Source of the DNA: Tubulanus polymorphus
Taxonomy: Eukaryota > Animalia > Nemertea
Assembly: GCF_964204645.1 (NCBI RefSeq)
Contig: NC_134027.1
Location: 12,618,485 to 12,682,484 of the forward strand
Reading direction: 5' to 3'
Length of the DNA: 64,000 nucleotides
The notes below the pieces were generated by a model. The model saw only the letters and a list, made by a program, of their open reading frames with translations, was not told where the DNA came from and searched no databases. This document shows, piece after piece, positions 265 through 55,810 of this stretch. The first letter of the stretch is position 1. Each line of letters begins with the position of its first letter. A program made the translations under genes and the position numbers.

Positions 265-696
265 TCAGTTTGAATTTTCTACTCCAGGAGCCGTGCCACT
301 AAAGGCTGCAATGAACACATTCAATGCAGTGATCAATAAAACAAATGCGGTTGCTAAATCATTCCACAAATATAATCTCCTGCGGTTTTTCATTTTGTTG
401 ATGTTGTTATCTTCTTGTTCGATATCTCCTTCGGTGTGTCTAAAAACATCTGATCTTCCTATGAGCAAAAATAACACAGCTGTTACGATTTGCAGCAGGA
501 TTGATATACATATCAGAGTTATGATCAGAGAACTGAATTTGAATTTATCATGATTGTTTAAACTATGTCGCAATTGTGTGGCATTTGCAGAAAACAGTGC
601 TAAATCAAGCAGACCACTCGTAAATGTTTTTTTAGTGGCGTACATCCCAAAATTTACTCGTGATGCATCAATGCTTCCATCAATTTCAGAACCAGC
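265..696 (-). CDS. Ninjurin family protein, coding exon 2 (ninjurin domain with two hydrophobic helices)
   Basis: Acceptor TTTTGCAG|GCT at 697/696. YATKKTFTSGLLDLALFSANATQL resembles the ninjurin motif YANKKSAAESMLDIALLMANASQL; SILLQIVTAVL and WNDLATAFVLLITALNVFIAAF match the two ninjurin TM segments. Stop at 265-267; about 187 aa in total. Confidence 0.9.
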   Translation of the reverse strand, partial: AGSEIDGSIDASRVNFGMYATKKTFTSGLLDLALFSANATQLRHSLNNHDKFKFSSLIITLICISILLQIVTAVLFLLIGRSDVFRHTEGDIEQEDNNINKMKNRRRLYLWNDLATAFVLLITALNVFIAAFSGTAPGVENSN

Positions 697-817
697 CTGC
701 AAAAGCAAATGATGCATTTAGTAATCATGTCGCGTTGAGTTCATGCATATATATTACATGCATTGTCGCCCTGATCACACACAACCTATAAATACACTAA
801 AGTTTAATGATAAGTAC

Positions 818-5640: not shown

Positions 5641-5920
5641 CCCACTCCAAAACTTAATTTAATGACTGATATCTCGGAATTTAAAGCAACTTTTTAGCCG
5701 GCTCTTCTATAATCAATTGATAAAATAGGTCCACGTTTATCGGCGTTAATATCTGATATCAAAACACCCAAATCCGACCCCATGTTTCACAGAAACCTTC
5801 GAAGCAGGGAAGAAATCAAACTGCAATGGGAAAAATAACCCTCCGACTTTTGGTGAGTGATTTTAACTCATTTTTTTCTATTTAGTGACCGAGGAAAACA
5901 AGATAGACGAAATCCTTAAT

Positions 5921-6380
5921 AGAAGTAATTAGATGTATGTCGTTTCATACCAGAGGTCGAAAGATCGAGCTCATAAAAAATAAAAAATAAATTCTCGCAT
6001 GCTCTAATTTACTTTTTATTTTTTACTCGCTCAACCTTTCAACCTCTGACATGAAACGACATATATCTTATTACTCTAATATTTATATATGTGATATTCA
6101 TATATATATATATATATGAATATTCTATATATATTATACAATGAAATCAATTTTATTAAAAAAATTATATAATAAATGGAGAGTAAACAAGTACACGGTG
6201 AGAGCAACAAATCATTCTTAAATAGGATTAAAGTTACTACAAATGCTAAATCAGTAGATTATAAATTTAAAACGCGATCTGAGTTTACAATTCATAAGAA
6301 ATATTTAATTACTTATATTGAAACAACTACTAATAAATATGGAGATAAATCAGTAATTCATCTAGAATATGAAGGATTGA
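5921..6380 (+). repeat. Polinton left terminal inverted repeat, including a ~155-bp hairpin (5921-6077) and the start of the TIR ORF
   Basis: Reverse complement matches 22244-22644 (e.g. CTCGCATGCTC, CAACCTTTCAACCTCTGA, ATGGAGAGTAAACAAGTACAC). Confidence 0.85.
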
Positions 6381-6385
6381 AAGGG
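6176..6385 (+). pseudogene. Polinton TIR-encoded small protein (MESKQVH...), truncated by an internal deletion
   Basis: Same protein at 22254-22448 (minus) and 22657-22939 (plus; that copy retains the C-terminus ...FRTYLPDRF...FIYKG...IYFE*). Confidence 0.7.
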
Positions 6386-7178: not shown

Positions 7179-8419
7179 ATGAGTGGGAGTTATATAAATC
7201 CATCTAAGAATTCTAGAATATCTAATGCAATTAAAGCAGAAAGATCTCATCATATAATTACTCATAATCCTTCTAATATTGATCCAAATGAAACTTAATA
7301 TGTTAGAATTCCGAGATTAAATCAAAATACTTTTTATCTTCCAAATACTATTTATTTATCAGCTGTTATAGAAGTAACTGGCAATAATAATAATCATGTT
7401 GTAGATAATGTTGGAAGATATTTGATTAAAAAATTAACTATAAAGATTGGACCAGATACAGTTTTTTCATTAGATGATTATAATTTATTTATGCATTATA
7501 AAGATTTATGGCTAACTAAAGAAAATAGAAATAATTTGATTTTCCAAGGCATTCAATCAGAAAATCAAAATAAATTAAGATCAGAAGCTAATAACGTAGT
7601 AGTAACTAATGACGTAGACAATTTAATAAAAAAGGTTTATGGTATTAAATATAAAATTCCATAAGACTTTGAATTGATAAATAATAATGCGCCTTTATAT
7701 AAATATGCAATACAAGAAGATATTATATTCGAAATAACATTTGCTCCTGTTAATGAAATTGTGCTATCTAGCGTTGTTAAAGATATGGGTTATAAATTAT
7801 CAAATATATGTTTAGAATATGACACAGTAACTGATGAAAATATCGCTAGCGCAATTCAAACTCAATACAATCAAGGTTATTCCTTATGATATGATTATAT
7901 AGATAAATTTAAAACTGTAACTATTAACGCAGCTGATGAAATGATTAATGAAAATATTAACTTTCCTAGAAGATCTATTAAAGGAATATTAATTTTCTTT
8001 AACACAATACATTCTAATGGTGCAATAAAGGTTGATAAGTATTATAACCCCGAAATATCAAAAGTAGAAATAGCTATTGAAGGTATAGCAAATGAAATAT
8101 TTTGTCAAGGAATGAGAATGATAGATCAATGGGTAGAAATAAAAAAAACATTTTATGACTGAAAAAATAAACTATCTGAAGATTGTGATATTAATCAAAT
8201 ATATTATTATACTGGTGATAAATTTGCATTATGATTAGATTTAGAACAACCGAAGATAACTTATTACATGGCTCTGGGAAGCGACTGCAGAACACTAAAG
8301 ATGGTATTCAATTATTCATGAGAAAGAAGAAAGGAGGTTTAAATTATAAAATGCATATGTATATTATATCTGACGCGCAATTAAACATTACAAATTCTCA
8401 ATTACATAGTGTTATGTAA
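7179..8419 (+). pseudogene. Polinton major capsid protein (double jelly-roll, hexon-like)
   Basis: ITHNPSNID, DNVGRYLIKKL, YKDLW, YKLSNICLEYDTV, PRRSIKGILIFF, YYNPEISKVEIAIEG, TEDNLLHGSGKRLQNTKDGIQL, ISDAQLNI are typical of animal Polinton MCPs. Several in-frame stops and frameshifts. Confidence 0.9.
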
Positions 8420-9223: not shown

Positions 9224-9487
9224 ATGGAATTTTTTGAACTTAAAGATGATGATTTTAGAGAATTTTCAAATAAACATCCATCTAAAAATGAAATCAAAAA
9301 TTATATTCCAAAAATATTTTCAAGAGCAGCATTTATTAATTATAAACTCAGGCATAGTGGAATTTATTCAGTAGCGATGAAAAGTAATGTAGATAAAGAA
9401 TATATCGATCTTGTCAAAAAATTGAAAATGAAAAAGAATGATTGTTCTATAGAAATATTATATAAATTAAATGGTATGATAAGATAG
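9224..9487 (+). CDS. Polinton hypothetical protein (probably the 3' part of a decayed gene)
   Basis: 87-aa ORF with the same AT-rich codon style as its neighbours; no motif recognised. Confidence 0.35.
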   Translation: MEFFELKDDDFREFSNKHPSKNEIKNYIPKIFSRAAFINYKLRHSGIYSVAMKSNVDKEYIDLVKKLKMKKNDCSIEILYKLNGMIR

Positions 9488-9919
9488 ATTGAATAGAATA
9501 AATAAAATGAATGGTTGAATTGGATGAGTTTTTTATTTACTTGATTTAGGTTATTTTATCAATTCTATACTATATTTGAATATTATTTAAATATATTATA
9601 ATATTATATTTATATTTTATTAGAAAAATATTTTAACATAGTATAAAATAATCTAAAATCATACTCATACCATTTGTAATGAAAAAAAAAAACAAATTAT
9701 GAAGTAAATATAAAACTAATCCTATTCAACTATTCATTAAATCCATTTTTATTCAATCTATTCGTCTTATCATACCATTTAAATTGTGAATTTGTAATCA
9801 AATGGAAATTTAAGCCTCAGCAATAATTTTGAACCTTTATTATTTTTTAATTGTTCTATAGATTCACTATGTAGTTCAGTAGGTATAATTTGATTTCCTT
9901 CTAAAGCCTGTTGCATAGA

Positions 9920-10803
9920 TTTTTGACGCTTTATAAAATGTTACCATTATGAACCTAAACAATGTTAACCATTCAGCGTCATTTTACAAACGACAACCGT
10001 AAATCGATGTGAAAAACATCACAGGTCTATGTGTACACATACAAGCTATTTGGTAAACATTCCACCAGCAACCCTGACATGGGGTTGCTGGTGGAATGAC
10101 GAAGCTATCTACGATCTGTGTAGGGTCGGCGTGAATTTCATCGGCGGCTACAAGCGGTCAATATAAAAATGTGTAAATATATAATTTCAATATTCAATTT
10201 CAATATTTTTTTTAGAAAATATATCCGATATTAGGGGTATGCGGGTTTCATGAGCAATTTATAATAGCATAGCTGCCATATACGGCTCCGCGTCCTCGGA
10301 TGGCATGTGTACGAGGTGACAATTCAATTCAATTCTTTATTGATCCATAAAATTCCCAAATTCAATAAAGTTACAAATTTTAAAATAAGAAAATACAACA
10401 TACAAAACACATGCGTATTTCATACAGAATAACATAAACAAGTTATTTTAAATGGCATTAAGGATATCGAGTGACAGCCAAACAGGCTAGGCCACACGAT
10501 CAGTCATCAGACGAGCTCTTTCCTCAACCATGGAGGCAATGAAGTTGCAGACCAGCTTAGAGGCAAAAGTGAATGAAGTCGGTTGCAAGGTATAAATTAT
10601 TGACAATTTTCAGTAAGAAAATTAAACCACTACTCCAGTCGAAGACCTAGGCTCGTATCACCTACCCAATAGCCAAATCTCATAATTCCCCAAATTTCTT
10701 AAAACCTCAATTTCAAATTTGCAATTCCACATTAGCTTATCCCAAAAATTCTACATTTTTTTCACAGGCGTCAAATAATTTATTAGAATACATTTCATTG
10801 TTT
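9920..10803 (+). mobile_element. HINE family E, copy 2 (internally deleted), inserted in the ATPase gene
   Basis: TTTTTGACGC...CAGGCGTCAAATAAT...TTGTTT; inverted homologue of 1218-2354; inserted in a T-run. Confidence 0.75.
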
Positions 10804-11008
10804 ATCTTTGTTATGAAATTATATTAAAAATCTTATATTCTCTCTTAAGTCGAATTATATTTTTGATTCAAAACCCAAGTTGTAATTCCAAAATGTCTAC
10901 CAGAGAACGCTAGATAACATAACTCACTTTCTCTAACATTTGAATCATGTAAATTGGCACAATCTTAAATCGTAAATTGGCACAATATTATGGATAATGT
11001 ATTTGTTC

Positions 11009-11011
<3 letters not shown>

Positions 11012-11092
<81 letters not shown>
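11012..11092. repeat. (TA)n microsatellite
   Basis: About 40 TA units. Confidence 0.95.
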
Positions 11093-11096
<4 letters not shown>

Positions 11097-11540
11097 ATTT
11101 TAATACAATTATCTAAATTATTCAGTACAGATTTAGGATCTAATGTAATACATTTTTTATTTTTTTAAACTATATCGCTATTATATATTTTATTCATTTC
11201 ATAAGTAGGACAGAATAATATTATATTATCAAAATGATTCTTATAAACAGTTTCTAATAAATCTAATATGAAATGTGTCTAACCGCAATTTGTTACTCCA
11301 GTTACTAACATATTATGTGGTTCAAATATAAATAAATCTTTATTATTCATTTATTTTTTTTATTTTATTTGATAAGATCCATTCATTAAATTTGTCATCA
11401 TACCCTTTATATTTCACCAAAGAATATTTCTTACCACGCAACGTTTTTGTTTTCAATACCTTTTCAATTTCATATTCTATATCAACTGGATTTGGTACAA
11501 GTGATAATTAGGTTATTTTTATGAACAAGAATTATTCTTG

Positions 11541-14500
11541 TGTAGATGGATGTAGATGTATTATACTCGTGTAGATGGCGTTGGGGGAGCGCTGAAGTGC
11601 TGCTCCTCAGCTCTTCCCAAAGTTACAATTTCAAGGCCTCTCCAGGGCCCTTGACTCGGATGGATGTGTTTAACTGTGTTGTGAATACTCCAAGACTGTG
11701 CTGGCTGAAAGACTTTACTGTTCTCATCACTGGAGAGTGTTTAAACTGATTTGGACTTTTTGGATTTTCAACATTCAGATAATTTTACTACCACCATATT
11801 GGATTACATAGCCTTGTGATAATGGCCAAGTTACGCTCGATCACGCGATTACTTGACTATAGTCGACTTAATATATCAAACCAACTGGAACATAAACTTC
11901 GTTCATTTAATATCTACAGACGCATGTCAACGAGGCGGAAAGTCAGAGGTTTAGGCTCTAAACCTTTTCATGGGACATTACCTGGACATTCAGTGGATAG
12001 TAAACAAACTTTGAGTGGATTCAAACTGGGTGTCTTCAATGCTCAATCTGTCAGGAATAAACATGATCAGATCCGCCTTGCTGTGACTGAATATGACATT
12101 GATCTTTTGTGTCTGACTGAAACCTGGTTATCTACATCTGACAAGGATGCCTTTTTTGCCAGATCACTTACACCCCCGGATATAACTTCGTGAATTTCCC
12201 ATATTCTGGAAATACTGGATATGGCGGTGTGGGTCTCCTTCTCAAACAAGGACTCACCATTCAGAGAAAGGAACTCTGCCTACCAGGCAACTCATTCCAA
12301 GCCTGTAGTATCAAGCTGTCAGCTGGATCTAGAGTTCTCCACATTGTCAATTTCTATCGACCACCACCCTCGCTTAAGAACAAATTTACTGTTACTGGAT
12401 TTATCGACGAAGTATCACCACTTATGATTGAACTCAGTTCTAGCCCAGGAGAACTTGTACTTGTTGGAGATCTGAACTTTCACTTTGACGTACCAAATTC
12501 ACCTGATACCATTAAGTTTATGGAGTTGATCCAGTCCCTTGATCTCAAGCAACATGTAGATTTCCCTCACACAGGTCGGGTCATACATTGGATGCTGTCA
12601 TCACAGCCCAGACCAGTAACGTCGTTCAGGCTTTGTCTCAGTGTGATATGTTATCTGATCATCTTTTGTTTGTCTGCGACATTGCATTTCCAAGAGCTCC
12701 ACCAACCAGAAAGGTTATTTTGACCAGGAATATGCGCGCCATAAATTCCTTATCTCTAGGTATGGAGATTGCTTCATTAGCACCACCTACTGAAGGCATA
12801 GGGTTGTCTGAAGTGTGCCACTATTATCACAAAGCCCTTGAAAACATACTGGACAGCCATGCCCCTCTCAAGAAGAAGGTCATCAATGTTAAGCCTTCTT
12901 ATCCATGGTTCAACGATGAACTGCGTCATGCTCGTTCCACTAAAAGGGCAGCCGAACGGAGGTGGAAGGATACTCGACTTACGGTACATTTTCAAATGTT
13001 TCATAGCGTGCGCAACCACTACAACATACTTATTGCCAAGGCTAAGCGTGACTACCTGAACAATAGAATAACTGATGCTGGTTCAGACACAAAAGCCATG
13101 CAACGCGTGTTCAATGAAATTCGTGTAAAGGACCGTACTTGTAGACTGCCAACGCATACTGACGATAAGGCCAAACTAACTGATGAATTTTCCGACTTCT
13201 TCATTGGCAAAGTCAAAGACATTCAGAATCGTTTTGATCAAATGCGCCCAGCTAGAGATGATCCACTATCATCCTGCCATCTTAATACACTTGATGAAGC
13301 TTCTGAAAGTGAAGTACGCAAAATCATAGTTTCTTCACCATCAAAGTCATGTGGTTTGGACATACTGCCTACGTGGCTAATTAAATATCCGGATGTCATA
13401 CCTTCAATTGTAACAGTGTTTACCTCTATAATCAACCACTCACTGTCTGATGGCTCTGTTCCAAAGTCATTAAAACTGGCTCTGATTACACCCATTCTCA
13501 AACAGCCAACATTGGATGCTGATGTCTTTAAAAACTATCGTCCAGTAAGCAATCTTACGTTTTTGTCTAAAGTTATTGAGCGAGTGGTGGCTGCTAGATT
13601 ATCTAGATACATGGAGGTGAACAACTTGCACGACCCCCTACAGTCAGCCTATAAGCGTAATCATAGCACCGAAACTGCAATACTCAGGGTTCAGAATGAT
13701 CTCAGGTGAATGGTGGACAGTCATGGCTGTGCTCTACTTGTGCTCCTCGACTTAAGTGCTGCTTTCGACACTGTGGATCATGACATTCTCCTCACTCGCA
13801 TGGAGAGTCGTCTTGGAATATCTGGTAGTGCACTTAGTTGGTTTCGATCCTATTTGAGTGAGCGCACACAAGCGGTGGTTATTGATGGTTGTCGATCAAA
13901 CCCAAAGGTGCTGGACTGTGGTGTACCCCAGGGCTTGGTCCTTGGCCCCCTTCTGTTCCTTGTCTATGCATTGCCGCTTATGCATCTGTTTACTAGTGAT
14001 ATTGTAAAGCGACATGGCTTTGCAGATGACAAACAAACGTATGTTGCCTTGTCTTGCAAATTTGATGCGGATCTATCCCAGCAGCTTAAAGAACTCCAGG
14101 ACACATTGAACAGGGTTCATTCATGGCTCTTTGAAAATAAACTCACGTGTAATCCGGATAAGTTCGAGGCCCTTCTCGTTGGAACTAAGCAGAGTTTGTT
14201 AATTCACATACCACCTCTAAATGTCGGCGGCGCCTTTATCCCAGTGCAGAAAGTACCGGTGAGAAACTTAGGTGTGATGTTTGATTCGTCCCTCTCCATG
14301 GACAGCCAAGTCAAAAGTGTGGCTCGTTCCGCCTCGTTTCATCTTAGGATTATTGGTTCTGCTCGTCGCTTCCTCACGCAGAACTCAGCAAAAATGTTAA
14401 CGCAGTCTTTAGTTCTGTCGCGATTAGACTATTGCAATAGCTGCTTGTATGATATCAGTGATTATCTTCTTCATAGACTCCAACTTGTGCAAAATAGAGC

Positions 14501-14952
14501 TGCTAGGATTATTGCACTCACTAAGTCACATGATCACATCTCTCCGATTCTCCGTTCACTTCATTAGCTACCAGTACGCAAACGGATCTTATTTAAAGTT
14601 GCTTTGCTGGTTTTTAAGTGCCTCCATAACTTGGCACCCTCTTACCTCTCCAGCCTGTTAACAGTTTACAGACCAGTCCGAACACTTCGTTCCGGGTCGC
14701 AGAATCTTTTGTTAGTCAGATCATGTCGTCTTAAGTCATTCGGCGGACACGCATTTGAGACATTTGCACCTACAGTGTGGAACTCCCTTCCGCAACCTCT
14801 CCGTGATATTGACTCTCTGCCAGCATTCAAAGCACAGCTCAAGACATTTCTGTTCAAGTCACCATCTTTGTCTGTAGAGCGCCTTTGATAATAGCACTGC
14901 TATTTACAAGGCGCTATAGAAATTTACAATCCTATCCTATCCTACAATCCTA
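11541..14952 (+). mobile_element. Near full-length single-ORF L2-clade (CR1 group) LINE
   Basis: Short 5' region starting GTAGATGG. 3' end GAGCGCCTTTG...AAGGCGCTATAGAAAT followed by an (ATCCT)n-like tail, typical of L2 3' ends. Possible short TSD TCTTG(T). Confidence 0.88.
11816..14888 (+). pseudogene. LINE ORF2: APE endonuclease + reverse transcriptase
   Basis: EN: FNAQSVRNK, LCLTETWL, FYRPP, VGDLNFH, SDH. RT: NYRPVSNLTFLSKVIE, LLDLSAAFDTVDH, GVPQG.VLGPLLF, FADD. Two frameshifts (~12190, ~12575) and two stops (13707, 14565). Confidence 0.92.
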
Positions 14953-15865
14953 TCTTGTTCATAATATTTCTTCATCATTTAGATCTAATAATTTGTATAC
15001 AAATGGCTTAGTTAATATTATCTTTATAATCTTAAATATTTCTTCGGTAAAATTAGGAGTATAACCTTTATAGAATGTATTTCGATTTACATATTCTAAC
15101 TTGTTGACCAATTTTAAACTTAGGTTCTCCGAAATCATGTGCAACAAACGCACCATCTAAATTGTTTCAAACAACTTCTGAATTATCTTCTTTTCTAGCT
15201 TGTATAGGTTTCATACCAATACTTGAATGTTTAAATTATTATAACCTTGCATCATCATATTATAACCTAAATCATCTGATACATCAATATATCTATATGT
15301 TTCATTAGCAGTAAAATATTTCCACATTCTAGTTTTCAATGCTTCATTAAATCTTTCTATAATAGATGCTTTTTCACTGAGTGTGTTGAAAAATACTCTA
15401 CATTGTTATCAGATAATAATCTTTTTAAATGTTTATTATAAAATTCTTTACCTTCATCAAATTGTATCTTACCTGGAATAGCTTCTTGAAATATTAATTT
15501 GAACGCATTAGTAACTTTTATACCTGTTTTATTTTGGTATACTCTATGCGTATCTACTGAATATATCTATAACATTTAATATCCAGAAATATCCTTTCTT
15601 ATATTGTTCTAAGTTCTTCATATCAATTAAATAAGCTTGCCACTTTTGGTCAATATATGACACCATCTTGTTAAAAAGTTTTTATCCATGTTTCTATGTA
15701 TTTGATATGTAGGCTGTTCTTGTAACCATGATTTTCATTCACTATATTTATTTTTATCTTTATCAAATTTAATTTTATCCCATAATTCTTCCACACTAGA
15801 ATATGATACTTCACTTTCAGGATTATGATATAAATCTATTAAATATTGTTCTTTTTTCATTATAT

Positions 15866-16813
15866 TCTAATCCATTGATAATAATTTAGATTTATTTTCA
15901 ATATTTTATTTCTTTTTTTATTTCTTATTTTATATCTTTATTTGATTTCTTTTCTGGTATAATAGGTTTATCATCATTATCATCATTATTAAATTTATAT
16001 TTATATTAAATTTATATTACACCAGAAAATAAAATAACTGTGATTAATCCAATTGAAATATGCAAGTAATTAATCAGAAGAATTAGATTATTATTAGATC
16101 ATTATTTGAATTAATATCAGATAATTTCAGTGATTCATTTATATCAGTTAATTTCGTTCCTTTGCTCTTTTTAACTGGGTAGATCTTTTTCCAAACTCCT
16201 TTGCCCACGCAATTTGTTTCTCAGATCTAGGCTTTTTTAAATATCATCACTCATTTATTTTAGTTAATTTTTGTTCTGTTTCATTATTATCTGATTTATC
16301 ATTATCTTTATATTCTATAGGTCAAATATTAGAAAATGTTATACTCCAGTAGAAATTAATGTCATTATTCCATCTAATTGGAATGATGTATACCCAACCA
16401 ATTTCTGTAATTCTGTCGTAACTATCTAATTATTTTTTAAATCACTATATAATTTATTTTCATCATTGATCGGCATTACCCGAATACATTACTTAGAGTA
16501 ACATTTTACTATTCCATCACTAATGGAATCATTTATTCTAGCTAATCTAGCTTCTTCATATATTTTAAAGTATTTGCTTACTTTATCTGGTTTCATAGCA
16601 TCTAGCTCTTGATATGTTATAATTTTACTTAAGAATTCTTTGCATTTACCACTAGCAATTAATAACTCAAGATGGTGCTAACATGTTGAATAGTACTCGT
16701 AATCAATACTATTATTAACTTGAGCCTAATTAGTTACAACTGTATCTCTATTATCTGTAATGCCCAATTCATTTAATGTCTTTTGTAACATTATCCTTTA
16801 ATTCCTTAGACAT
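15866..16813 (-). pseudogene. Two small conserved Polinton genes (ATG at 16813 and 16254)
   Basis: ...LELLIASGKCKEFLSKIITYQELDAM...YFKIYEEARL... and MSDDI...KPRSEKQIAWAKEFG followed by a hydrophobic stretch. Resemblance to Polinton accessory genes is from recall. Confidence 0.55.
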
Positions 16814-17018
16814 TTATTATGAGAAAAAAAGAAAAAAATAAATATTAAAATATTTTAGTTAAAGTTAAAGTATTCTAGTATTCTATATATGTTCATAATA
16901 CTATTTGTAATATTCATAGTATGTGGTTGTTCTACCTCGATTTATTGTGCAAATTTTTTCATCAAAATTCAATAACATGTTAAAATCCTGTTCATAATCT
17001 GATTTTCTTTATCTTCTT

Positions 17019-17366
17019 CTCTTTTGAACTTCAGATATTCATCTGAATTTCAACCATAAGCGACTGTTTGAATTCCGTCGTTTAATATATATCTCTTATC
17101 ATCGAAAGGGTTCAAACTAACTTTTTCTATCGCTTCAATAAACATCTCATGATCCACAGATCTTAAACATCTCATCTTATTTTTTCTAACGTCTCTTTTG
17201 AACTTCAGATATTCATCTGAATTTCAACCATAAGCGACTGTTTGAATTTCTTCGTTTAATATATATCTCTTATCATCGAAAGGGTTCAAACTAACATTTT
17301 CTATCGCTTCAATAAACATCTCATGATCCACAGATCTTAAACATCTCATTTTATTTTTTCTAACTT
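17019..17366. repeat. 174-bp tandem duplication of the PolB C-terminus
   Basis: Unit starting CTCTTTTGAACTTCAGATATTC at 17019 and 17193; the copies differ at a few positions. Confidence 0.9.
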
Positions 17367-18148
17367 CTTCATTAAATATGCTATTGATATAATCTTGGAA
17401 ATGAATATTTTTTTCTACTACACTTTTGGTAATTCCTTTCAATTTTTTAGCTTCATTTTCCTTAGTTTAATATGAATACATTTTAGATCTAATACCTATG
17501 AACTCTATCATTTCTTCACCACCTAATTCATCTTTAAATTTACCTGGAACTTTTTTATCATCATTACTAAATAATTGATTTTTAGGATAGTTACTGAAAT
17601 GAAATAAAAATGATGTTTTAATATTTTCAAATCATTTGTTAGATTATTAGTTTTTATCTTTAATATGTAACTCTCAGTATCAAAATATAAGATTTCTATA
17701 TGCTTTTCACCAAAATGTGGTTGCAAAACATTATAACAAAATTCATACATCAATAATTTTGATATTTCTAAAACTGATGCTCCAACATAATAGGTTTATT
17801 GAACTTCATTGATGTTCTTCTCATTTTAACTGTAGCTAAACTTTCATCAGATATTATGTTACCTATGAACGGATATGATTGTAAATACCTAATTCTTTTT
17901 CCATTGCTCACCAACTCAATATAATTTCTATTTCTAATATTCTCACAAGTCTTTCCATAGAATGCATTATTCATTAAGTTGAAGAAATCTTTCTCAAAAT
18001 CAGTTTTAGCTTTAGTTCTCTGTTTGGTTTTAAAATTAATATATTTTTCTAACCATTTAGATTGACTGAATGAAATATATCTATGTACTTTTTTAATATG
18101 ATTCCTTGTTTCAAATAGAATTTTAACATTCTATAATGTACTACATAA

Positions 18149-19412
18149 TTAGGGTTTCTGCTGCCTCGGCAGAAACCCTATTGGATTCCTGCTGATTATC
18201 ATTTTAACATATTCTCCACTGGTTTCGTCACAAAAAAATTCATCTTCTATTAGATTTGACTACTAACAACTTTGAAACGAAATGTTAAACTCTGATGATA
18301 ATATAACAGTCTCTTGCTGCGCGTAGTTTCTATGGATGTACTGTGCTTCCTATTTTAAACTTGAAGTTACTTAAAGATAACACCGGTGGAAATAGCAATC
18401 ATCAATCATGGCGCGCACACTGGCGCGAATCTGAAAGTTTGTGACGTCATTTCATAAATAAATAAAGAAGGGAGGCTCCGAGAATATCCAAATCACAGGT
18501 CACTGTGAATAACTGGGGTTCGACCATTCACAAGTTAAAAATGTACTACTTCCTTGTTTGTGAAGTAAGTTCATTCATACTGTTATTAAAAGCATTTTAA
18601 CCTTTTAAACATTTTAAACATTCTATAATAGTATAGTTTTGTTCGTGGATATCAATACTTCGAAACATCAACAGCGGTTTATTCATTTATTGTACCGGTA
18701 CGCGTTTTCTTAATTAAATTGAATTGGTCCGGTCCAAAAGGCGGGTCATACTAGTTAGCGTCAGAAAATGTCAGCGTCGGTGATACCTTGTTATCGTCGA
18801 TATTAAACGGTCTAAAGTCAGTTTATACATCACATACATAACAAATTGGATGTCCCTTGTACATGTACATCACATCGTGACGCAGCGGTGATGTGAATGT
18901 CATAGAAGAACAAAGTCAGTTAAAAATACCTACCCACTGCACCGATAAAGAATGATTGCAAGCCAGAGGTCAGTGACAGACAGTCAGTAATGGGGAGTGA
19001 TGGTACCGTTCGTGATTATGTTTTTATAATGGTTATTGGACGTCAATTTCATATGTGAATTGTAGTCCCCATCTGATCGCTTGACTTGTCAGACTGACTT
19101 GTCACTCCTCTACTAATAGTAACACTATAAGGCCTTCCCTCCTGCATAGTTTACCCTATAGGCCAAATTTGTGTTTTCTCATCTTTTTTCGGAACCAGTA
19201 ATAACCGAATATGCGCTTAAACTGTCACTAGCGAATGGTAAAAACACCGTAGCTTCGTTCTTCTCGATGTTATTTCCCCCAAAACCTGGTACATTAGTAC
19301 TTCGCGCGTAGTAGCACATGCGCGTAGTAGCACATGTGGGTCAACATATCCATGTTGTGAGTTGACCCCTAGGTGGCACTCTTTCAAAAAACGGAATGTG
19401 ACGAACTGATTT
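18149..19412 (+). mobile_element. HINE family D insertion (3'-truncated) within PolB
   Basis: 5' hairpin TAGGGTTTCTGC...GCAGAAACCCTA; shares an internal segment (TTTGTGACGTCATTT...GGGAGGCTCCGAGAAT.TCCAAATCAC) with 38455-38965. PolB residues between GYFFE and NYVVHY are missing. Confidence 0.6.
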
Positions 19413-22243
19413 CGAAAAAGTACCCAGTATCAGCATCATCCGCTATATCTAGAGTTCTTTTCTTACAATCAAATTTATCAACATTTTCATGTTGTAAAAC
19501 TTCACTTATTTCAAATACTCCATAAGTTTGTGGTTCCATCATTACCCAACCATATAGATTATTTGCGTCTATATATAATAATTCATATACAGGATTATCA
19601 TTTACATTGAAATATCTATCACCTAATACACCTGAAACACCTCCTCTTATAGAATTTTCAAATAATACTAATTGATCTATATTTGTTAATAAGTCCCTTT
19701 TTAAATCTGTAGATTTTAAAAGACATCCCCAAGTTAAACCTGGACTAGAATAACAGTGGCAAGGATCGATATTAAAATATCTTAGATTTACATCTCTAAA
19801 CCTTTCGAATACATCAGTTAATAATAATATATCTGATCTTAAATATAAATCTACTAATTCACCATGATCTTTCAGTCCAAAATGATTCCAAATATTCAAT
19901 GTTCTATTATAAACTTCATCTTTAACACATTCGGATCTTAATTTATCATAAAATTGTTCTTTTAAAAATTCAGTTATATTAAAATCATTATGATCTTTAT
20001 AAAAACTATATGGTATAGCACCTATATATCTCATTAATTGAAAATCATCATTATTTGGATAGTGTTGCTTTAATATTTTTAGTTCATCATCAACCAATGA
20101 TTTTGATAAATTATCTAATAAACTATTTAGAAATCTATATGAGTCTATAAATCTTAAACATCCAAATTGGAAACATATATGATTTTCAGATGTTTTAGCT
20201 AACATTTTGAATTTATAAGTTGGTATTTTGTCTACATCTTTTGATCTATTAGAATTCAATATTTCTATTTCATTATTGATTTCTTCTATTTTATGACATA
20301 GTTGTTTAATGAATTAATGAGCACCATACTCTGATAAATTATGAAATATTACTGGAACAAAATTGATTTTTTTTAGCGTGCAAGTTTCAATTCTCATGTG
20401 CTGCACCTCTAAACTTTCCATTCAAATGATCATGATCTCTAACTTTTTCATCTTTGAAATTAAATAGTTTTTCACAATAAAAACATTTATCAGCAAACTC
20501 AAATTCCTCTGTATCTTGTTCTGTCATTATAATTTCTTTATTTGCATCTTATAATTCATTAAATTTCATTTCATATTGAATTAATAAGTCACTAAAATGA
20601 TTAATAACATTTTCATTTCCATAATAATAATATTCACTTTTAATTAATTCTGGATAGTCGGATTTCACAAATAAACCAAAGGCTGCAGCTGATTGTTGAA
20701 TATTTTTAATAGTATTTGTTTTTGGTGATCCTGGATAATCAATTACACCAGAATTTAATTTCGTTTTCTTATAATATATTTCTGTTCTATCTTGGTCAGT
20801 TAGTTCTTTATACTAAATAACAAATGGTACTTTATTTTTGTAATCATATTTTTTGAATTCTAATGTATTATCTTTTCTGTTGATAGAATTAATTTACAAT
20901 AATCATGATTATCACATAGTTGTTTATGATCTAATAATGCATTTTCAGTTCTAACTTTATGTAAACATTTTCTACATAGATATATTTTATGAGCATTATC
21001 AGAATCTGATTTAAAAAATAAATCAATTTTTTTATCCACATATAATGATTATCATAATATGATATATCTATAACATCAATTGAATCATAATCTTTTGATA
21101 GGTATAGAGGTTCTAATGTGTAATGTCTTATATTATCTCCTTTTGTATTTGGTAATTTAATCAAATCAAATACATTTATTTTTATATTATTATCTCTTTC
21201 TATTTTTGGAATATTTTCAATTCTAATAGGGTACCTATCTATCTAATAATTATTTTCAAATGGTAAATAATTTGATAATCTAGATCTATGTGTAATATCT
21301 TCTGTTGGATGTAAACAATTAATCATTGACCATACAAAACATTTATTATCTTCATTTTGTACATTTATAACAGCATTAGTTTTAAATGGTAATTTGATAT
21401 AACTTGATGTATTTATATCATTATCGTTATAATATGATGAATTATTTTCATCAATTGGTTTTTATTTAGTCAATTTATTATATTTTGTATTGTACACATG
21501 TAACGTCATAAATATTATTTCATCGAATTTCAAACCCGATCCTTCAAAATATTTCTCTTCTATTTTACTTTTTATTTCATTATAACATCTATCTAATCTA
21601 TCATATATATGTTGTTTTGAAATAGTATGTTGTGAATGAGAATTTATATTATATATTGGTTTATCTTCGGATTTTGTAAATTTAACTTTAGCAGATATAC
21701 TAATTTTAGGATATTCTACGTCTGTGATTATTTTTATAATATTTTTCATATTTTCTAAATGTTTCTTATTTTCTTCTAATGTTTTGCCTTTATAAAATTT
21801 AAATTCAATAGCAGCTGGTCCAATATCACTTTTAAATGCTTCGGTTATTTCAATATTTTTTTATCATCTAATGAATAAATATAAATTCTAACATCTTCAA
21901 TGTATGGTCTTTTATTGTTTAATTTATTCTTTATTCTTTTAATCATGCTTTTTGTTTCTTATTATCTTTATCAAAATAATCTTCACCTAACATATCATTA
22001 TTGATATTTCTAATATGACTTTTAGATTTTAAATGTTGTTCATAATATCTTTTGTTACTGAATGATTGATTACATGTAACACATTTATATAGTTCTTTTT
22101 CATTCTTAAATTCTTCTAATTTAGTTTCTAATATATCATCTTTATATTCTAATTTCAATCTATTCTCTAAGTGTGTTTTAGTTTTATTATTTCTTGCTTT
22201 TTGAGATTTATCTATGTTAATTTTACATGTTGGACAGTAGTAA

Positions 22244-22644
22244 TCAATCCTTCTTATTCTAAATGAATTATTAATTTATTACCATATCTATTAGTAATTG
22301 TTTCAGTATTAGTAATTAAATATTTCTTATGAATTGTTAATTCTGTTAACTTCTTAAATTTATAATCCACTGATTTAGCATTTGTAGTAACTTTAATTCT
22401 ATCTAAGAATGATTTGTTGTTCTCACTGTGTACTTGTTTACTCTCCATTTATCATATATAAATTCTTTTATCAAAATTGATTTCATTATATGATATTTAT
22501 AAAATATTCATATATATAAATATCACATATATAAATATCAGAGTAATTAGACGTCGTTTCATATCAGAGGTTGAAAGGTTGAATGAGTAAAAAATAAAAA
22601 AAAATTCGAGCATGCGAGAATTTATTTCTTATTTTTTATGAGCT
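22244..22644 (-). repeat. Polinton right terminal inverted repeat (outer ~47 bp missing)
   Basis: Inverted match to 5968-6380, including ORF 22254-22448. Confidence 0.85.
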
Positions 22645-22656
22645 AAATACATGTAA

Positions 22657-22939
22657 GTAGATTATAAATTTTAGAAGTTAACAGAATTAACAATTCATAA
22701 GAAATATTTAATTAGGGCCTACTAATATTGAAACAATTGCTAATAGATATGGTAATAAATTGATAATTCATTTAGAATATGAAGGATTGAAAGGAAACAA
22801 ATATAAATTCAGAACATATCTACCAGATAGATTTCATAGATTATCTAGTAAAGATATTGAAGAATTATGTTCTGGTGATTTCTATTTCATATATAAAGGT
22901 AAGAATGAAAAAGGGCGCCATGAAATATATTTCGAATAG
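22657..22939 (+). pseudogene. Third, inverted copy of the Polinton TIR ORF (C-terminal two-thirds)
   Basis: VDYKF*KLTELTIHKKYLI..TNIETIANRYGNKLIIHLEYEGLKGNKYKFRTYLPDRFHRLSSKDIEELCSGDFYFIYKGKNEKGRHEIYFE*. Confidence 0.8.
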
Positions 22940-23971
22940 TAAAAAATTTAGACTTTAGCCGTTGGAATATAGATTTCTTTGAAAAAGAGAAGGAAAAATC
23001 GGGACCATTAATATTCAACCGTTGTTTTTGATTCAGTCAAAGAGGCTATGATTCATTGGAAGCTGTGATTTGGGAATAAGTGATAATTTTTGAAGTTGGG
23101 CTGTTCCTCAGAAATTGATTTCTGATGCAAATTTCTCTATTCATCTGACTCATCAACAAGATCTTTTGACAGTTTTGACCATTTTAAAGTTCACCAGACG
23201 CGAGGTTTTTGGTGGCGGGGAGGTTTTCCATTTGATAACCACCATTAAAGTTAAATCAAAGTATTAAATCACTCCCAACGCACGTATTTTATGAGTTGTA
23301 TAATCAACACTGTGTAATTTATCATTTAATCGTCTAACTTTGTCGAAGTTGAAAAATAGGCCCTCAGATGCGCCGAAAAAGCACAAAACCCTCACCGGGC
23401 TTCGCGCGTGCTCGAACTGAATGCGCTCGTTTGAATGTGCGCACCGTCGGCGCTCCAGATTGTCGCACCATTGACTAATTTTAGGTGGCTACGTATCGGA
23501 GTTGTAGGTAATGTAAAAACGTTAATCTGTTAATCCTATGTCTATAGTAGTTATTTTATATAGACAGGATTAACAGATAATCGTTTTTACATTACTTAAG
23601 ACCCTGTGATCCCGCACCGTTTTTTTTATAGATTTTTAACGTATAAATGCTGGATGTATCTTAGCTTTAAAAAACAAAGAATGGATGCTTCCAAATATTT
23701 TCAGCAAAAATAGAAATGCTGCCTACCTGGCAGCGCGGGAGTACTGCAACTCCTTAAGTGAATCGTTTTGGAGCGGAACACACGCGCGTATTACATCCCA
23801 CACGCAAGCCCGCTAGCTAGAATCAACGTTTCGTACGAGCAGTTAGTTCTCTAGTCGACACCGCCGACGATCAATGTATGTGACGATCAATGTATGTACA
23901 ACGTACAGACAAGACACGACCCGGACTACTTGCTGCCTGCCAGCATTGCATTCAGAATATTAAACATCATC

Positions 23972-24172
23972 ATGGATGTCGCTGTCAACACCAGAGCGTA
24001 TTGCAAAATGCTGCTCCATGCAGCTAAATATCCGCATTGCTCAGTCAACGGTCTTCTTTTGTCACAGAAGTCGAAAGAAAAAGAAACGAAGCACTTGAAT
24101 TTCGTAGATTGCATTCCACTGTTTCATCTTTCTTTAACCCTAGCTCCCATGTTAGAGGTGGCACTAGCTCAG
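23972..24172 (+). CDS. EMC8/9: ER membrane protein complex subunit 8/9, exon 1
   Basis: [30 protein letters not shown]...DCIPLFH...[11 protein letters not shown] (EMC8/9 MPN-like signature); donor CAG|GTGAGT, phase 0. Confidence 0.93.
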
Positions 24173-24728
24173 GTGAGTTTTGTAGCAGCAGGTACCGACA
24201 CGTAGTAAACAGAAGTAACCTGCCTGATTTCACCTGCCTGTGGTCACAGGCACTTTTGAATATGGGCTTTGATACTGAAAAGAATTAGGCCTATTGATAA
24301 TCCAGATAAGTAGGCCTATTGTTGTTCTCCATCTATCTCCAATGAATTAAGTATCAACCAAGATCCAAAATCTTGTAGGCCTATCCACCCACAGGGCTCG
24401 TATTTGAAGTGTGGGGCACAGGGACTTGACACAAAGGGATTTTGACCCCAGTATCCTAGGTACTATGTATAAAAAGACATGGGAATATTAAGAATATTCT
24501 TAAAGATTTCTGCGTTAGACAGAGTGGTTTGAGAAAGTCGGCTCAGGATACGACCAGAAACATGACAAACCATGCTGGAATCTGAGCATCGTATACGAAG
24601 TGGATATTTAACGCATATTGAAGTCCGCATGCGCGGCGTAAATCGGCCGGTAAAATAGCGGAAATAAATGCTCAGCCATATATGGTAAAATATCCACTGC
24701 CTCGTATAGGCCTATATCCTTTTTTCAT

Positions 24729-43176: not shown

Positions 43177-43425
43177 TCATGCTTTAGGTAATACGACATT
43201 ACACTTTTCACATACATTTCTTTCTATATTATCCAAATGTATTTGAGTAAATTTATGTTTTAAAAAATTACTACGACTTACATATTTATCACATTCTTCA
43301 CAATATTTATCATTATTATTATCTTCGGTATTATAATTATCAATTTCACTATTATTGTTCAATTCATCATTATTTTCATGTTTACCATCATATGGAATAT
43401 GTTTATATACTTTACCTTCATCCAT
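43177..43425 (-). pseudogene. Polinton zinc-finger gene fragment downstream of the second capsid relic
   Basis: MDEGK...YCEECDKYVSRSNFLKHKFTQIH...CEKC; same position relative to the MCP gene as 8458-9110. Confidence 0.65.
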
Positions 43426-43457
43426 TTCATATATAAAAATTATCAAAGATGATTTTA

Positions 43458-45560
43458 TTAATACATAACACTATCTAATTGAGAATTTATAATATTCAAT
43501 TGCGAGTCAGATATAATATAAATATGCATTTTATAATTAATTTTTCCTTTCTTCTTTTTCATGGATAATTGTATTCCATCTTTTGTATTTTGTAATTTTT
43601 CCCAGAACCATGAACAAAGTTATCCTCTGTCATTCTAAAATCTAACCATAATGCATATTTATTGCCGGTATAATAATCAATTTGATTAATATTACTATCT
43701 TCAGATAGTTATTTTTTTCAATCATAAGATGTTTTTTAATTTAAACCCATTGATCAATCATTCTCATTCCTTTACAAAATATTTTATTTGCTTTACCTTC
43801 GATAGTTATTTCTACTTTTGATATTTCAGGATTATAATAATTATCAACTTTTATTGCACCATTAGAATATGTTGCAATGGTAAACAAGAAAATTAACTTT
43901 AATAAATTATTTAACGCCTGCGAAAAAATGTAGAATTTCTGGGAGAAGCTAATGTGGAATTGCAAATTTGAAATCGAAGTTTTAAGAAATTTGGGGAATT
44001 ATGAAATTTGGCGATTGGGTAGATGATACAGTCTTCAACTGGTCTAATTTTAAAAAAATTGTCAACTTGTGACCGACTTCGATTCACTTTTGCCTCTAAG
44101 CTGGTCTGCAACTTCATTGCCTCCATGGTTGAAGAAAGAGTTCTTTGGACGTTTGCTTCATCTTGACGTTGAGCATATCGTGTAGCCAGCCGGCCCGGTC
44201 CTGGGGCCCGGTTTGGCTGTCACTCGATATCCTAGACTTGAGTCTGGGTTGAAGTAGACATTGTCATTTAAAGAACTTATTCATGTTATTCTGTATGAAT
44301 TAACCGTGTGTCTTGTATTTTGTATTTTCTTATTTTAAGATTTGTAAGTTTTTTAAATTTTATCCCGGAATTTCAATGTAATAAGGATCAATAAAGTATT
44401 GAATTGAATTGTCACCTTATACACATGCCATCAATGGACGCGGAGCCGTATATGACAGCTATGCTATTATAAATTGCTAATCTCATGAAACTTGCATACC
44501 CCTTATATCGAACATATTTTCTAAAACATTTGAATATTGAAATTATATGTTAACACGTTTTTATATAGACCGCTTGTAGCCGCCGATGAAATTCACGCCG
44601 GCCCTACTCAGATCGTAGATAGCTTCGTCATTCCACTAGCATCCCCATGTCAGGGTCTGACTTTTATATCAGACTTCCAAATCGTGTATAATAATAATCC
44701 GATTTACTTATCATTTCTATTTATGCCTGCCGCTCCTGATATAATCATACATCCTTTACTATTACAATACGTCTTCTCATGATATTCAATGCAATATAAC
44801 ATTTCGACGTTCAAATAGACGTCATTATATAATCACAGGGAGCCATTCTACATCTTTATCAATAATATTTTGCCAAATAGCTTGTATGTGTACACATAAA
44901 CCTGTGACGTTTTGCACATCGATTTACGGTTGTCGTTTGTAAAATGACGCTGAATGGTTAACATTGTTTAGGTTTCATAATGGTAACGTTTTATAAGGCG
45001 TCAAAAAATATTAATATACCTTTAATAGATCTTCTTGGGAAGTAAATATTCTCATTAATTATTTCATCATTTGCATTAATAGTTACAGTTTTAAATTTAT
45101 CAATATAATCATATAATAATGAAAATTCTTGATTGTATTTAGTTTGAATTGTGTTAGCAATATTTCATCAGTTACTGTGTCATATTCTAAACATATATTT
45201 TATAATTTATAACCCATATCTTTAACAACGCTAGATAATACAATTTAATTAACAGGAGCAAATGTTATTTCGAATATAATATCTTCTTGTATAGAATCTT
45301 TATTTAAAGGCGCATTATTATTTATCTATTCAAAGTCTAATGGAATTTTATATTTGCTTCCATAAATCTTTTTTTATCAAATTATCTACGTCATTAGTTA
45401 CTAATGCATTATGTGCTTCAGATCTTAATTTATTTTGGTTTTCTGATTGGATGCCTTGAAATATCATATTATTTTCTTTTGTTAACCATAAATCTTTGTA
45501 ATGCGTAAATAAATTATAATCATCTAATGAAAAAATTCTTTCTGGTCCAATCTTTATAAT
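43458..45560 (-). pseudogene. Second Polinton major capsid relic (5'-truncated, split by HINE E)
   Basis: IKIGPERIFSLDDYNLFTHYKDLW...PRRSIKGILIF|insertion|TIATYSNGAIKVDNYYNPEISKVEITIEG...SQLDSVMY*; clearly homologous to 7440-8419. Confidence 0.88.
43883..45007 (-). mobile_element. HINE family E, copy 3
   Basis: Collinear with 1218-2354; inserted in a T-run of the capsid gene with no TSD. Confidence 0.78.
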
Positions 45561-55199: not shown

Positions 55200-55810
55200 A
55201 CTTTCTGTTAGCACTAGGTGGCACAAATTGTAACCACTGGATATACAGCTGATATTTTGTCATAGGTGAATTTTGAAATAGGTGTTGCCATTTATATGGA
55301 AAGTTTCACCAAATTCTATGGGCTTTTTAGGCATATACTGCATGAGTTACAGTCTACCTTTGAATATGACATATACTCTCATCAACAGACAGGTCCTGTG
55401 TTGGGCTTTGTACCTAAGAGTACAGGTATCCAGGTTTCGTACTTATAACAATGGATCATAGCCTGACTGACAATTCAGCATTCTTACAGCATTGTGAATG
55501 AAGTGAAGACAAGATGAAATTGATTGGAATCTATGTTTATGCCATACTAAAATATGACATATTTGGGGTATCAGTAAGCTAAAAGCCCCTAAAAAATCTG
55601 CAAGTTTTGGCTTACGGCAAATTCCCATAGCTATGGTCATGGCCATATAAATTTTGAGATCATTCTCGTTGATGTCTTTCCATTGATGAATCCTGGAGGA
55701 TCGTGGTAATTCAGCAGGAGAGTCTAAGATCTCTGCATACCAATTGGTTTCAGTAACTAACGCATAAAATGCAAAAACCAAATAGGGGTCAAGGGACACC
55801 ACGCCCATTT
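55200..55810 (-). pseudogene. piggyBac (PGBD) transposase fragment in a septin intron
   Basis: LVTETNWYA...WKDINENDLKIYMAMTIAMGICRKPKLADF...RFQSISSCLHF...YDPL is the piggyBac N-terminal signature; frameshifts and stops follow. Confidence 0.8.

Follow-up and report, generated by a model that had tools for sequence, protein, structure and literature searches.

We asked why a Polinton, an element that encodes its own protein-primed DNA polymerase (pPolB), should carry a DNA hairpin at the very start of its terminal inverted repeat (TIR), and what such a structure may do. The case comes from the nemertean Tubulanus polymorphus, in a stretch of 64,000 nucleotides of contig NC_134027.1 (positions 12,618,485 to 12,682,484) that was analysed whole and is called the window here. 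A sequence-only reading of this DNA had claimed an imperfect fold-back of ~155 bp at the start of the TIR, and this is present: the quoted arms and the left loop were found, and the hairpin occupies exactly 5924-6075 (152 nt), with arms that are 81.6% complementary. The segment 5915-6085 folds at -41.6 kcal/mol (z -12.4), and 0 of 200 shuffles folded as well. The parts of the element are as follows.

5918..5923, no strand: left flank hexamer, the expected position of the target-site duplication (TSD), immediately before AGT
5924..5993, plus strand: outer arm of the terminal hairpin, opening with an end/origin motif of ~46 nt that hairpin-less sister Polintons also have
5994..6005, minus strand: hairpin loop; on the 3'-terminal (minus) strand a tandem G·A/A·G step plus a short mini-stem can close it
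6006..6075, plus strand: inner arm, an inverted copy of the end motif; read on the minus strand, its fixed differences form G·T and tandem G·A pairs
6076..6384, plus strand: remaining left repeat, an AT-rich stretch followed by the beginning of a small TIR-adjacent gene
6176..6385, plus strand: 5' part of this 117-aa TIR-adjacent gene (tblastn, 71%)
7179..8416, plus strand: major capsid gene with stops and a frameshift; a family copy matches it at 83%, and its Capsid_N match (E 0.0014) stays below cut-off
9788..11338, minus strand: packaging ATPase gene in pieces with host repeats between them (family copy matches Pox_A32, E 1.5e-11)
11346..15866, minus strand: integrase gene, split by a LINE into 11346-11507 and 14962-15866 (family copy matches rve, E 4e-9)
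11783..14900 (approximate), plus strand: the inserted LINE retrotransposon, with endonuclease and reverse transcriptase
17176..22242, minus strand: protein-primed DNA polymerase gene in pieces
22244..22644, minus strand: truncated right terminal repeat, with the inner arm at 22542-22606, the loop at 22607-22618 and what is left of the outer arm at 22619-22644
22645..22940, plus strand: inverted copy of the element's own interior, joined to the truncated outer arm and encoding the remaining part of the small gene

The Polinton copy in the window is decayed. Its left repeat (5968-6380) matches the right end (22644-22244) over 416 bp at 86%. The hairpin had been described as conserved at both ends, and this holds in part: the inner arm and the loop, which reads CTCGCATGCTCG at 22607-22618, recur on the right, but just 26 nt of the right outer arm (to 22644) remain, the outer 44 nt having been replaced by the inverted interior copy. 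The last T of the left loop is private to the window copy. The polymerase gene retains parts for zinc fingers, a terminal-protein domain, a vOTU domain, an exonuclease with an endonuclease VII insert, and the palm. For the 117-aa gene, the nearest Pfam-bearing cluster is phi29 SSB (score 0.86) and OB-fold matches are weak (Z up to 4.8); as a lead, the gene beside the repeat may encode a single-stranded DNA-binding protein.

Several other features were seen in the window. An AT-rich palindrome of 332 bp (72%) lies at 9464-9785, between the converging capsid-side and ATPase-side genes, and two full-length family copies likewise have internal palindromes. A 177-bp tandem duplication (97%) spans 17018-17368, where the polymerase 3' end meets the following gene. 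A second, inverted fragment of the family's capsid region occupies 43360-45558 and is interrupted by the same host repeat that is found at 9920-10810 and 1218-2353. The flank holds a 94-bp palindrome (81%) at 23505-23598, probably a small host repeat, and further sequence includes a host Ninjurin gene (265-717, minus strand), a UPF0172 exon (23855-24202, plus strand) and a DDE_Tnp_1_7 transposase fragment (55443-55808, minus strand). The Ninjurin gene is a sign that the host is an animal.

Three full-length relatives in the same genome have TIRs of 345-351 bp that are 97-99% identical, and the ORFs of two of them match PF03175, endonuclease VII, rve and Pox_A32. PF03175 was above cut-off in both a window piece and a family copy, and the best PDB fold match of the family polymerase is phi29 polymerase (Z 14.4, rmsd 3.4, 224 residues aligned). 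As in Polintons/Mavericks, a pPolB that carries a terminal-protein domain, a vOTU domain and an HNH/endonuclease VII insert is combined with a retroviral-type integrase, an A32-type packaging ATPase, a capsid (the weaker match), TIRs, 5'-AG ends and a 6-bp TSD. By this insert the polymerase is reminiscent of the HNH-bearing pPolB2 group of Jeong et al. (10.1101/2023.08.22.554363), of which it may be a member. Among 15 family ORFs scanned, part of the ORF set, there was no match to a maturation protease (adenain/Ulp1) and no Pfam match to an HUH Rep/NS1 nickase. A single-protein scan of IMG/VR returned no relative, the origin-box DNA pattern matched 0 stretches there, and no Rfam family reached cut-off for the hairpin. 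The family is large, with 1646 and 723 first-look candidates, of which the best 40 were scored in each case. The genome labelled G000 is rich in Polintons of several families (1344 first-look PF03175 candidates, of which the best 91 were scored), and the first ~45 nt of the ends follow one layout across these families.

The hairpin begins at the first base of the element, which upholds its assignment to the Polinton TIR. The true terminus could be located from TSDs: in 7/7 end pairs with readable flanks a 6-bp duplication directly adjoins AGT, exactly in six and with one mismatch in the seventh, and the hairpin therefore starts at the terminal base. A start a few bases outside the terminus was ruled out, as copies share sequence from AGT on and their flanks are unrelated. 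No TSD is confirmed for the window copy itself because its right terminus is lost; a matching hexamer is absent at that damaged end. An independent MITE was also rejected: in all 56 ends with both terminal motifs, judged by eye, the inner arm is followed by the AT-rich TIR interior and not by host flank. One solo hairpin was seen, L238 (G000:C6 ~2342000), whose two arms are both of the outer type and which is flanked by a duplication; recombination between the left and right hairpins, themselves direct repeats of each other, could have produced it in the manner of a solo LTR.

We then compared the two arms across the family. Of 83 loop-bearing ends, 56 have both terminal motifs and 41 of these are in register (15 dropped), giving 35 distinct ends. 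At positions 7-20, the outer arm is identical to the copy expected from its own inner arm at 0.947 and from another copy's inner arm at 0.639; 0 of 5000 permutations did as well, a value that is not a probability, the copies being related. At least two Watson-Crick states, each in at least 3 of the 35 ends, occur at 18/51 positions, and each such position implies at least one two-sided change. The arms thus covary, as had been proposed as a check of the hairpin (own arm 95%, cross-copy 64%). Pairing is near perfect across the terminal 26 nt, and the fixed arm differences sit deeper.

The mismatches that remain are not shared equally by the two strands. Counted on the strand that carries the 3' end, there are 162 G·T against 19 C·A and 91 G·A against 7 C·T. 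Each of the 12 recurrent classes (at least four copies) turns out as G·T or G·A when read on that strand, tandem G·A included; with linked positions merged, the 12 classes and the loop make about seven independent sites, or 1 in 128 by coin toss. Sporadic mismatches are unbiased (A·C 19, G·T 13, G·A 11, C·T 7). The arm difference that the sequence-only reading had noticed, CTCAT against GAGT, becomes T·G, tandem G·A/A·G and G·T on the 3'-end strand. The tandem GA/AG of that strand at positions 48-49 is found in 30/35 ends and recurs at the loop, where both GA steps are intact in 81/83 family loops, a set chosen by loop likeness, around four variable central nucleotides. According to the accessible part of PMC8163305, tandem GA/AG steps in DNA are unusually stable and C-containing mismatches the least stable. 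The 3'-terminal strand is the more stable fold in 35/35 ends, which bears out the suggestion that it is the 3' terminus that folds. Since both strands fold strongly (means -45.1 and -51.4 kcal/mol), the bias is a matter of degree.

A subfamily of 30 loci (L212-L241, e.g. G000:C8 5789553-5790043) has the same end motif but a terminal hairpin of ~410 nt with a different centre. Seven of the 30 loci lack exact ends; the other 23 ends were used, 14 of them distinct. Among the distinct ends, all 6 recurrent classes are G·T, partly at the same positions as in the 152-nt hairpin, and distal identity is 0.97 to the own arm and 0.74 across copies. The 3' strand is the stabler fold in 23/23.

Terminal hairpins of the AAV or poxvirus type occur as flip/flop isomers, and these are absent here. 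The normal loop-to-interior order was matched at 56 places and the reversed order at five, none of which is a clean whole-hairpin inversion: the first has a locally inverted loop, the second is a head-to-head junction, the third is ambiguous, and in the remaining two the end is normal and its flank gave the match. One truncated end, L203, is in reversed order. A reversed loop was not found among the 100 listed of the 114 outer-to-inner matches. The likeness to parvovirus and poxvirus ends drawn in the sequence-only reading breaks down at this point. As far as the available text of PMC1185569 goes, asymmetric resolution in autonomous parvoviruses also keeps one form, and this mode would be compatible with the single orientation seen here.

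Relatives without a hairpin serve as controls. Ten other Polinton regions were fetched from the same genome; two (A2 and D2) had no usable TIR, and a terminal hairpin was present in 0 of the 8 with a TIR, so the hairpin is dispensable for this polymerase lineage. Five of these sisters have a polymerase 61-62% identical to that of the family, the endonuclease VII motif, exact TSDs and the layout of the outer arm's first ~45 nt. They led us to drop the notion that endonuclease VII accompanies the hairpin. At position 35, C is found in the sisters and in the outer arm (33/35) and T in the inner arm (32/35). Because the sisters share the outer-arm state, we take the outer arm as the ancestral end motif and the inner arm as an altered inverted copy; the change would disable the inner arm as an origin. 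With five sisters that have the same motif and no hairpin, the hairpin looks like an add-on that is unlikely to replace protein priming.

Outside this genome, 128 loci were examined, most of them without ends. The hairpins found were those of L102 (71%, 257 nt), L103 (72%, inner arm only) and L243 (33% polymerase identity), whose 129-nt AGTAGT...ACTACT hairpin has a perfect distal 19 bp; L102 and L243 alone have BLAST support. In L243 the same (3') strand is favoured (-42.2 against -33.3 kcal/mol), whereas L102 has no strand bias (-70.5 against -70.0). L178 has a weak Y-shaped end fold of 55 nt (z -2.35). In L106 the origin motif is present and the inner arm missing; L199, with both its TIRs, lacks a palindrome. 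Scanning the 128 loci loosely for AGTA...TACT was uninformative (16 matches, against 39 in reversed controls). A further idea, in which the two bases that follow the inner arm make good the dinucleotide removed by the integrase, fits this family, L243 and L178 but fails for L102 and L103. Other palindromes were noted in this set. A nearly perfect one of 249 nt, with an internal tandem repeat as loop, ends ~14.8-kb contigs (L136:3-251, L135:1-106) that encode a 33%-identical polymerase; those of L136 (249 nt) and L181 (184 nt) lie upstream of the polymerase in contigs whose element termini are putative. A metagenome contig (L173:1789-1933) has a 145-nt hairpin in which four mismatches of tandem G·A type and the GAA loop all fall on one strand; it interrupts a polymerase gene and was left uncounted. 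In addition, 29 contigs (L242-L270) filed in bacterial/archaeal MAGs, probably mis-binned, encode relatives of the polymerase.

Does the family still prime with protein? We modelled the N-terminal 910 residues of the family polymerase (mean pLDDT 80) and compared 61 sequences. An alpha/beta domain (144-275) matches the Y-family little-finger domain (2r8j, Z 8.3, rmsd 2.9, 104 residues aligned; 4ir1, Z 7.9, rmsd 2.7, 94 aligned). In the part of PMC11161782 available to us, Polinton terminal proteins are compared with that same little-finger structure, and the linking Ser/Tyr is placed in the loop between helix 2 and strand 4. The predicted linking residue, Ser255, is kept in 59/61 sequences, and the vOTU residues Cys317 and His415 in 61/61 and 60/61. 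The model thus suggests that the family polymerase keeps its terminal-protein domain and the predicted priming serine. The whole-model search, dominated by the exonuclease domain, listed no PDB match for the vOTU or endonuclease domains.

Self-priming from a folded 3' end should leave inverted copies of the interior, and a few ends carry them. Inverted interior sequence was found in the outer flank of 8/111 ends; six are neighbouring ends or short elements, and two are attached to a hairpin. In the copy at G000:C2 11.448 Mb, the outer arm runs on into 281 nt that are 100% identical to the copy's own interior and finish in 16 nt of terminus against host DNA, the sequence expected of an extended folded 3' end that regained an end. 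No far end was found within about 25 kb of this junction, and the inverted duplication could possibly be a host-side rearrangement or an assembly artefact. The second is the right end of the window copy, where the extension matches the adjacent right-end interior at 90% and the left end at 81%, with a 3-nt microhomology at the joint; it is a probable trace of fold-back extension. Raw reads and contigs aligned to a young family end contained many copies, and among the joints listed no terminal strand-switch joint was seen, an indecisive result with short reads and a high-copy palindrome. The proposal that each 3' terminus self-primes is supported in part, by rare traces (2/111 ends), and not as an obligatory mode, which is unlikely because the predicted priming apparatus is kept and same-motif sisters lack the hairpin.

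We favour the reading that the hairpin serves as a telomere on the single-stranded 3' end, where it restores and repairs the origin, with protein priming kept and self-priming occasional, and give it a probability of about 0.5. We infer every step in free DNA from integrated copies. The hairpin would have arisen as an inverted duplicate of this Polinton's end motif. Copying primed by the terminal protein would displace one strand, whose 3' end would fold back on the inner arm, hiding the end and re-creating a duplex origin locally, with no need of a long-range panhandle. The polymerase could then trim and refill the last bases with the inner arm as template, after which protein priming would start the second strand; on this proposal, the hairpin keeps one orientation because it does so. 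Occasional run-on of the polymerase from the folded 3' end into the interior would give a long inverted duplication. The telomere reading draws on the TSDs, the covariation, the strand bias, the single orientation, the retained priming domain and the rare inverted copies, and on the precedent of Streptomyces, with its 3' overhangs, sheared G·A pairs and fold-back repair. Against it, the 12 mismatch classes come to ~7 independent sites, the strands of L102 are equal, 8/8 other Polintons are without a hairpin, and arm conversions run both ways, unlike the inner-to-outer direction alone of pure end repair.

If the folded 3' end were instead extended in each cycle to a hairpin-closed duplex and then reopened or asymmetrically resolved, by a nick at the outer-arm boundary (perhaps by endonuclease VII) with a short terminal-protein patch or by junction resolution like that of the MVM left end, the pairing of the 3' end to its last base and the head-to-head junctions at G000:C2 11.448 Mb and the window right end would be accounted for. 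The accessible literature also has asymmetric resolution keeping one orientation in parvoviruses, whose bubble the fixed arm differences resemble, and hairpin priming proposed for protist virophages and PLVs. Such routine self-priming nevertheless seems rather unlikely to us, with junction traces as rare as 2/111, a conserved priming domain, no HUH nuclease among the 15 family proteins scanned, and endonuclease VII also in the five hairpin-less sisters. A combination is similarly doubtful: the displaced strand would self-prime at its 3' hairpin and be nicked at the arm boundary, the terminal protein would do no more than patch the 152-nt end, and across the group such hairpins would have been gained or lost several times. 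Less likely again is a structure for recognition, in which the folded end, or a cruciform in the integrated copy, would be bound by the integrase, the packaging motor or a helper virus protein during excision, integration or packaging and act as neither primer nor template. Its exact coincidence with the integrase end, conserved non-canonical pairs that could form a binding surface, the direct repeats that a hairpin makes of the termini and the one solo hairpin with a flanking duplication would suit such a role; yet a cruciform needs both strands folded while the mismatches suit one of them better, the distal stem varies freely in sequence but pairs strictly, as templated copying would leave it, and the sisters integrate with exact TSDs without any hairpin.

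The hairpin may also do nothing, a single fold-back accident having duplicated the end and mismatch repair or gene conversion having kept the arms alike. Its absence from the sister families and conversion tracts in both directions would be expected, and accidental annealing is raised in the available text of a preprint on Halocafeteria; we hold this very unlikely, since the fixed mismatches persist across subfamilies and favour one strand, which new mutations do not, and hairpins of 152, ~410, 257 and 129 nt all open with the AGT motif and are paired to the last base. Slimmer still is the chance that the structure is an RNA hairpin in an outward transcript, a small-RNA precursor or terminator, with the bias marking the transcribed strand. 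A G·U/G·A bias is also found in RNA hairpins, which counts against the telomere reading, and the minus strand scores against miRNA precursor models, though below cut-offs (49 against 95 bits); but pairing stops exactly at the last DNA base in every length class, and the genes beside both repeats point inward.

Terminal palindromes inside the TIR and beside TSDs are described, in the accessible part of bioRxiv 10.64898/2026.07.28.741278, for Halocafeteria virophages and PLVs that mainly lack pPolB, with hairpin priming as an untested model. The position in the TIR next to the TSD is the same here; those elements are from protists and mostly without pPolB, whereas this is an animal Polinton that encodes pPolB and keeps protein priming, and the palindrome section of the preprint has no analysis of covariation, strand or orientation such as that given here. 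Streptomyces telomeres, as far as the accessible sources go, combine terminal-protein priming with 3' folds that contain sheared G·A pairs (PMC4513846), and truncated ends are repaired on the fold-back (PMC5449611). The family is like them a protein-primed linear replicon with a folding 3' strand and G·A pairs, whose sheared geometry is deduced from PMC8163305; Streptomyces is bacterial, has an internal origin, Tap/Tpg and several short palindromes, and the relation is one of functional analogy, with no homology. The left end of autonomous parvoviruses (MVM, LuIII; available text of PMC1185569) likewise has a 3'-terminal hairpin, a conserved asymmetric mismatch and a single orientation. In our family the 3' end is paired to its last base and its use as a primer is putative; it differs from parvoviruses in having its own protein-primed polymerase and integrase-mediated integration, and NS1/Rep was not found in 15 ORFs. 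Poxvirus telomeres, like the ends described here, are AT-rich, imperfect terminal palindromes of the hairpin type; in contrast to them, the family has no flip/flop pair, and its integrated ends are open. From other Polintons/Mavericks it is set apart by a TIR that opens with a covarying, strand-biased fold-back of the end motif, which same-genome sisters lack.

In the text available of Jeong et al. (10.1101/2023.08.22.554363), the words 'hairpin' and 'palindrom' are absent and no such Polinton ends are described; nor are they in the available text of PMC11296320. The full-text literature, that is, outside subscription journals, Repbase and preprint supplements, returned no report of a terminal hairpin in an animal pPolB Polinton and none of covariation, strand or orientation evidence on Polinton hairpins.

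Taken together, the hairpin is real and probably functional. What is known of Polinton replication and excision comes almost entirely from models, and the available part of PMC11161782 calls the handling of the terminal protein and the ends around integration unclear. Were the doubtful combined origin true, parvovirus-like and Streptomyces-like end handling would be joined in one integrating virus. The family partly answers the survey called for in the accessible text of the 2026 preprint, in an animal element that keeps pPolB. It offers a cis-element with evolutionary evidence on the folding strand, a fixed orientation, hairpin-less sisters as controls and traces of run-on, and with it the question of hairpin versus protein priming becomes one of oligonucleotide-scale biochemistry.
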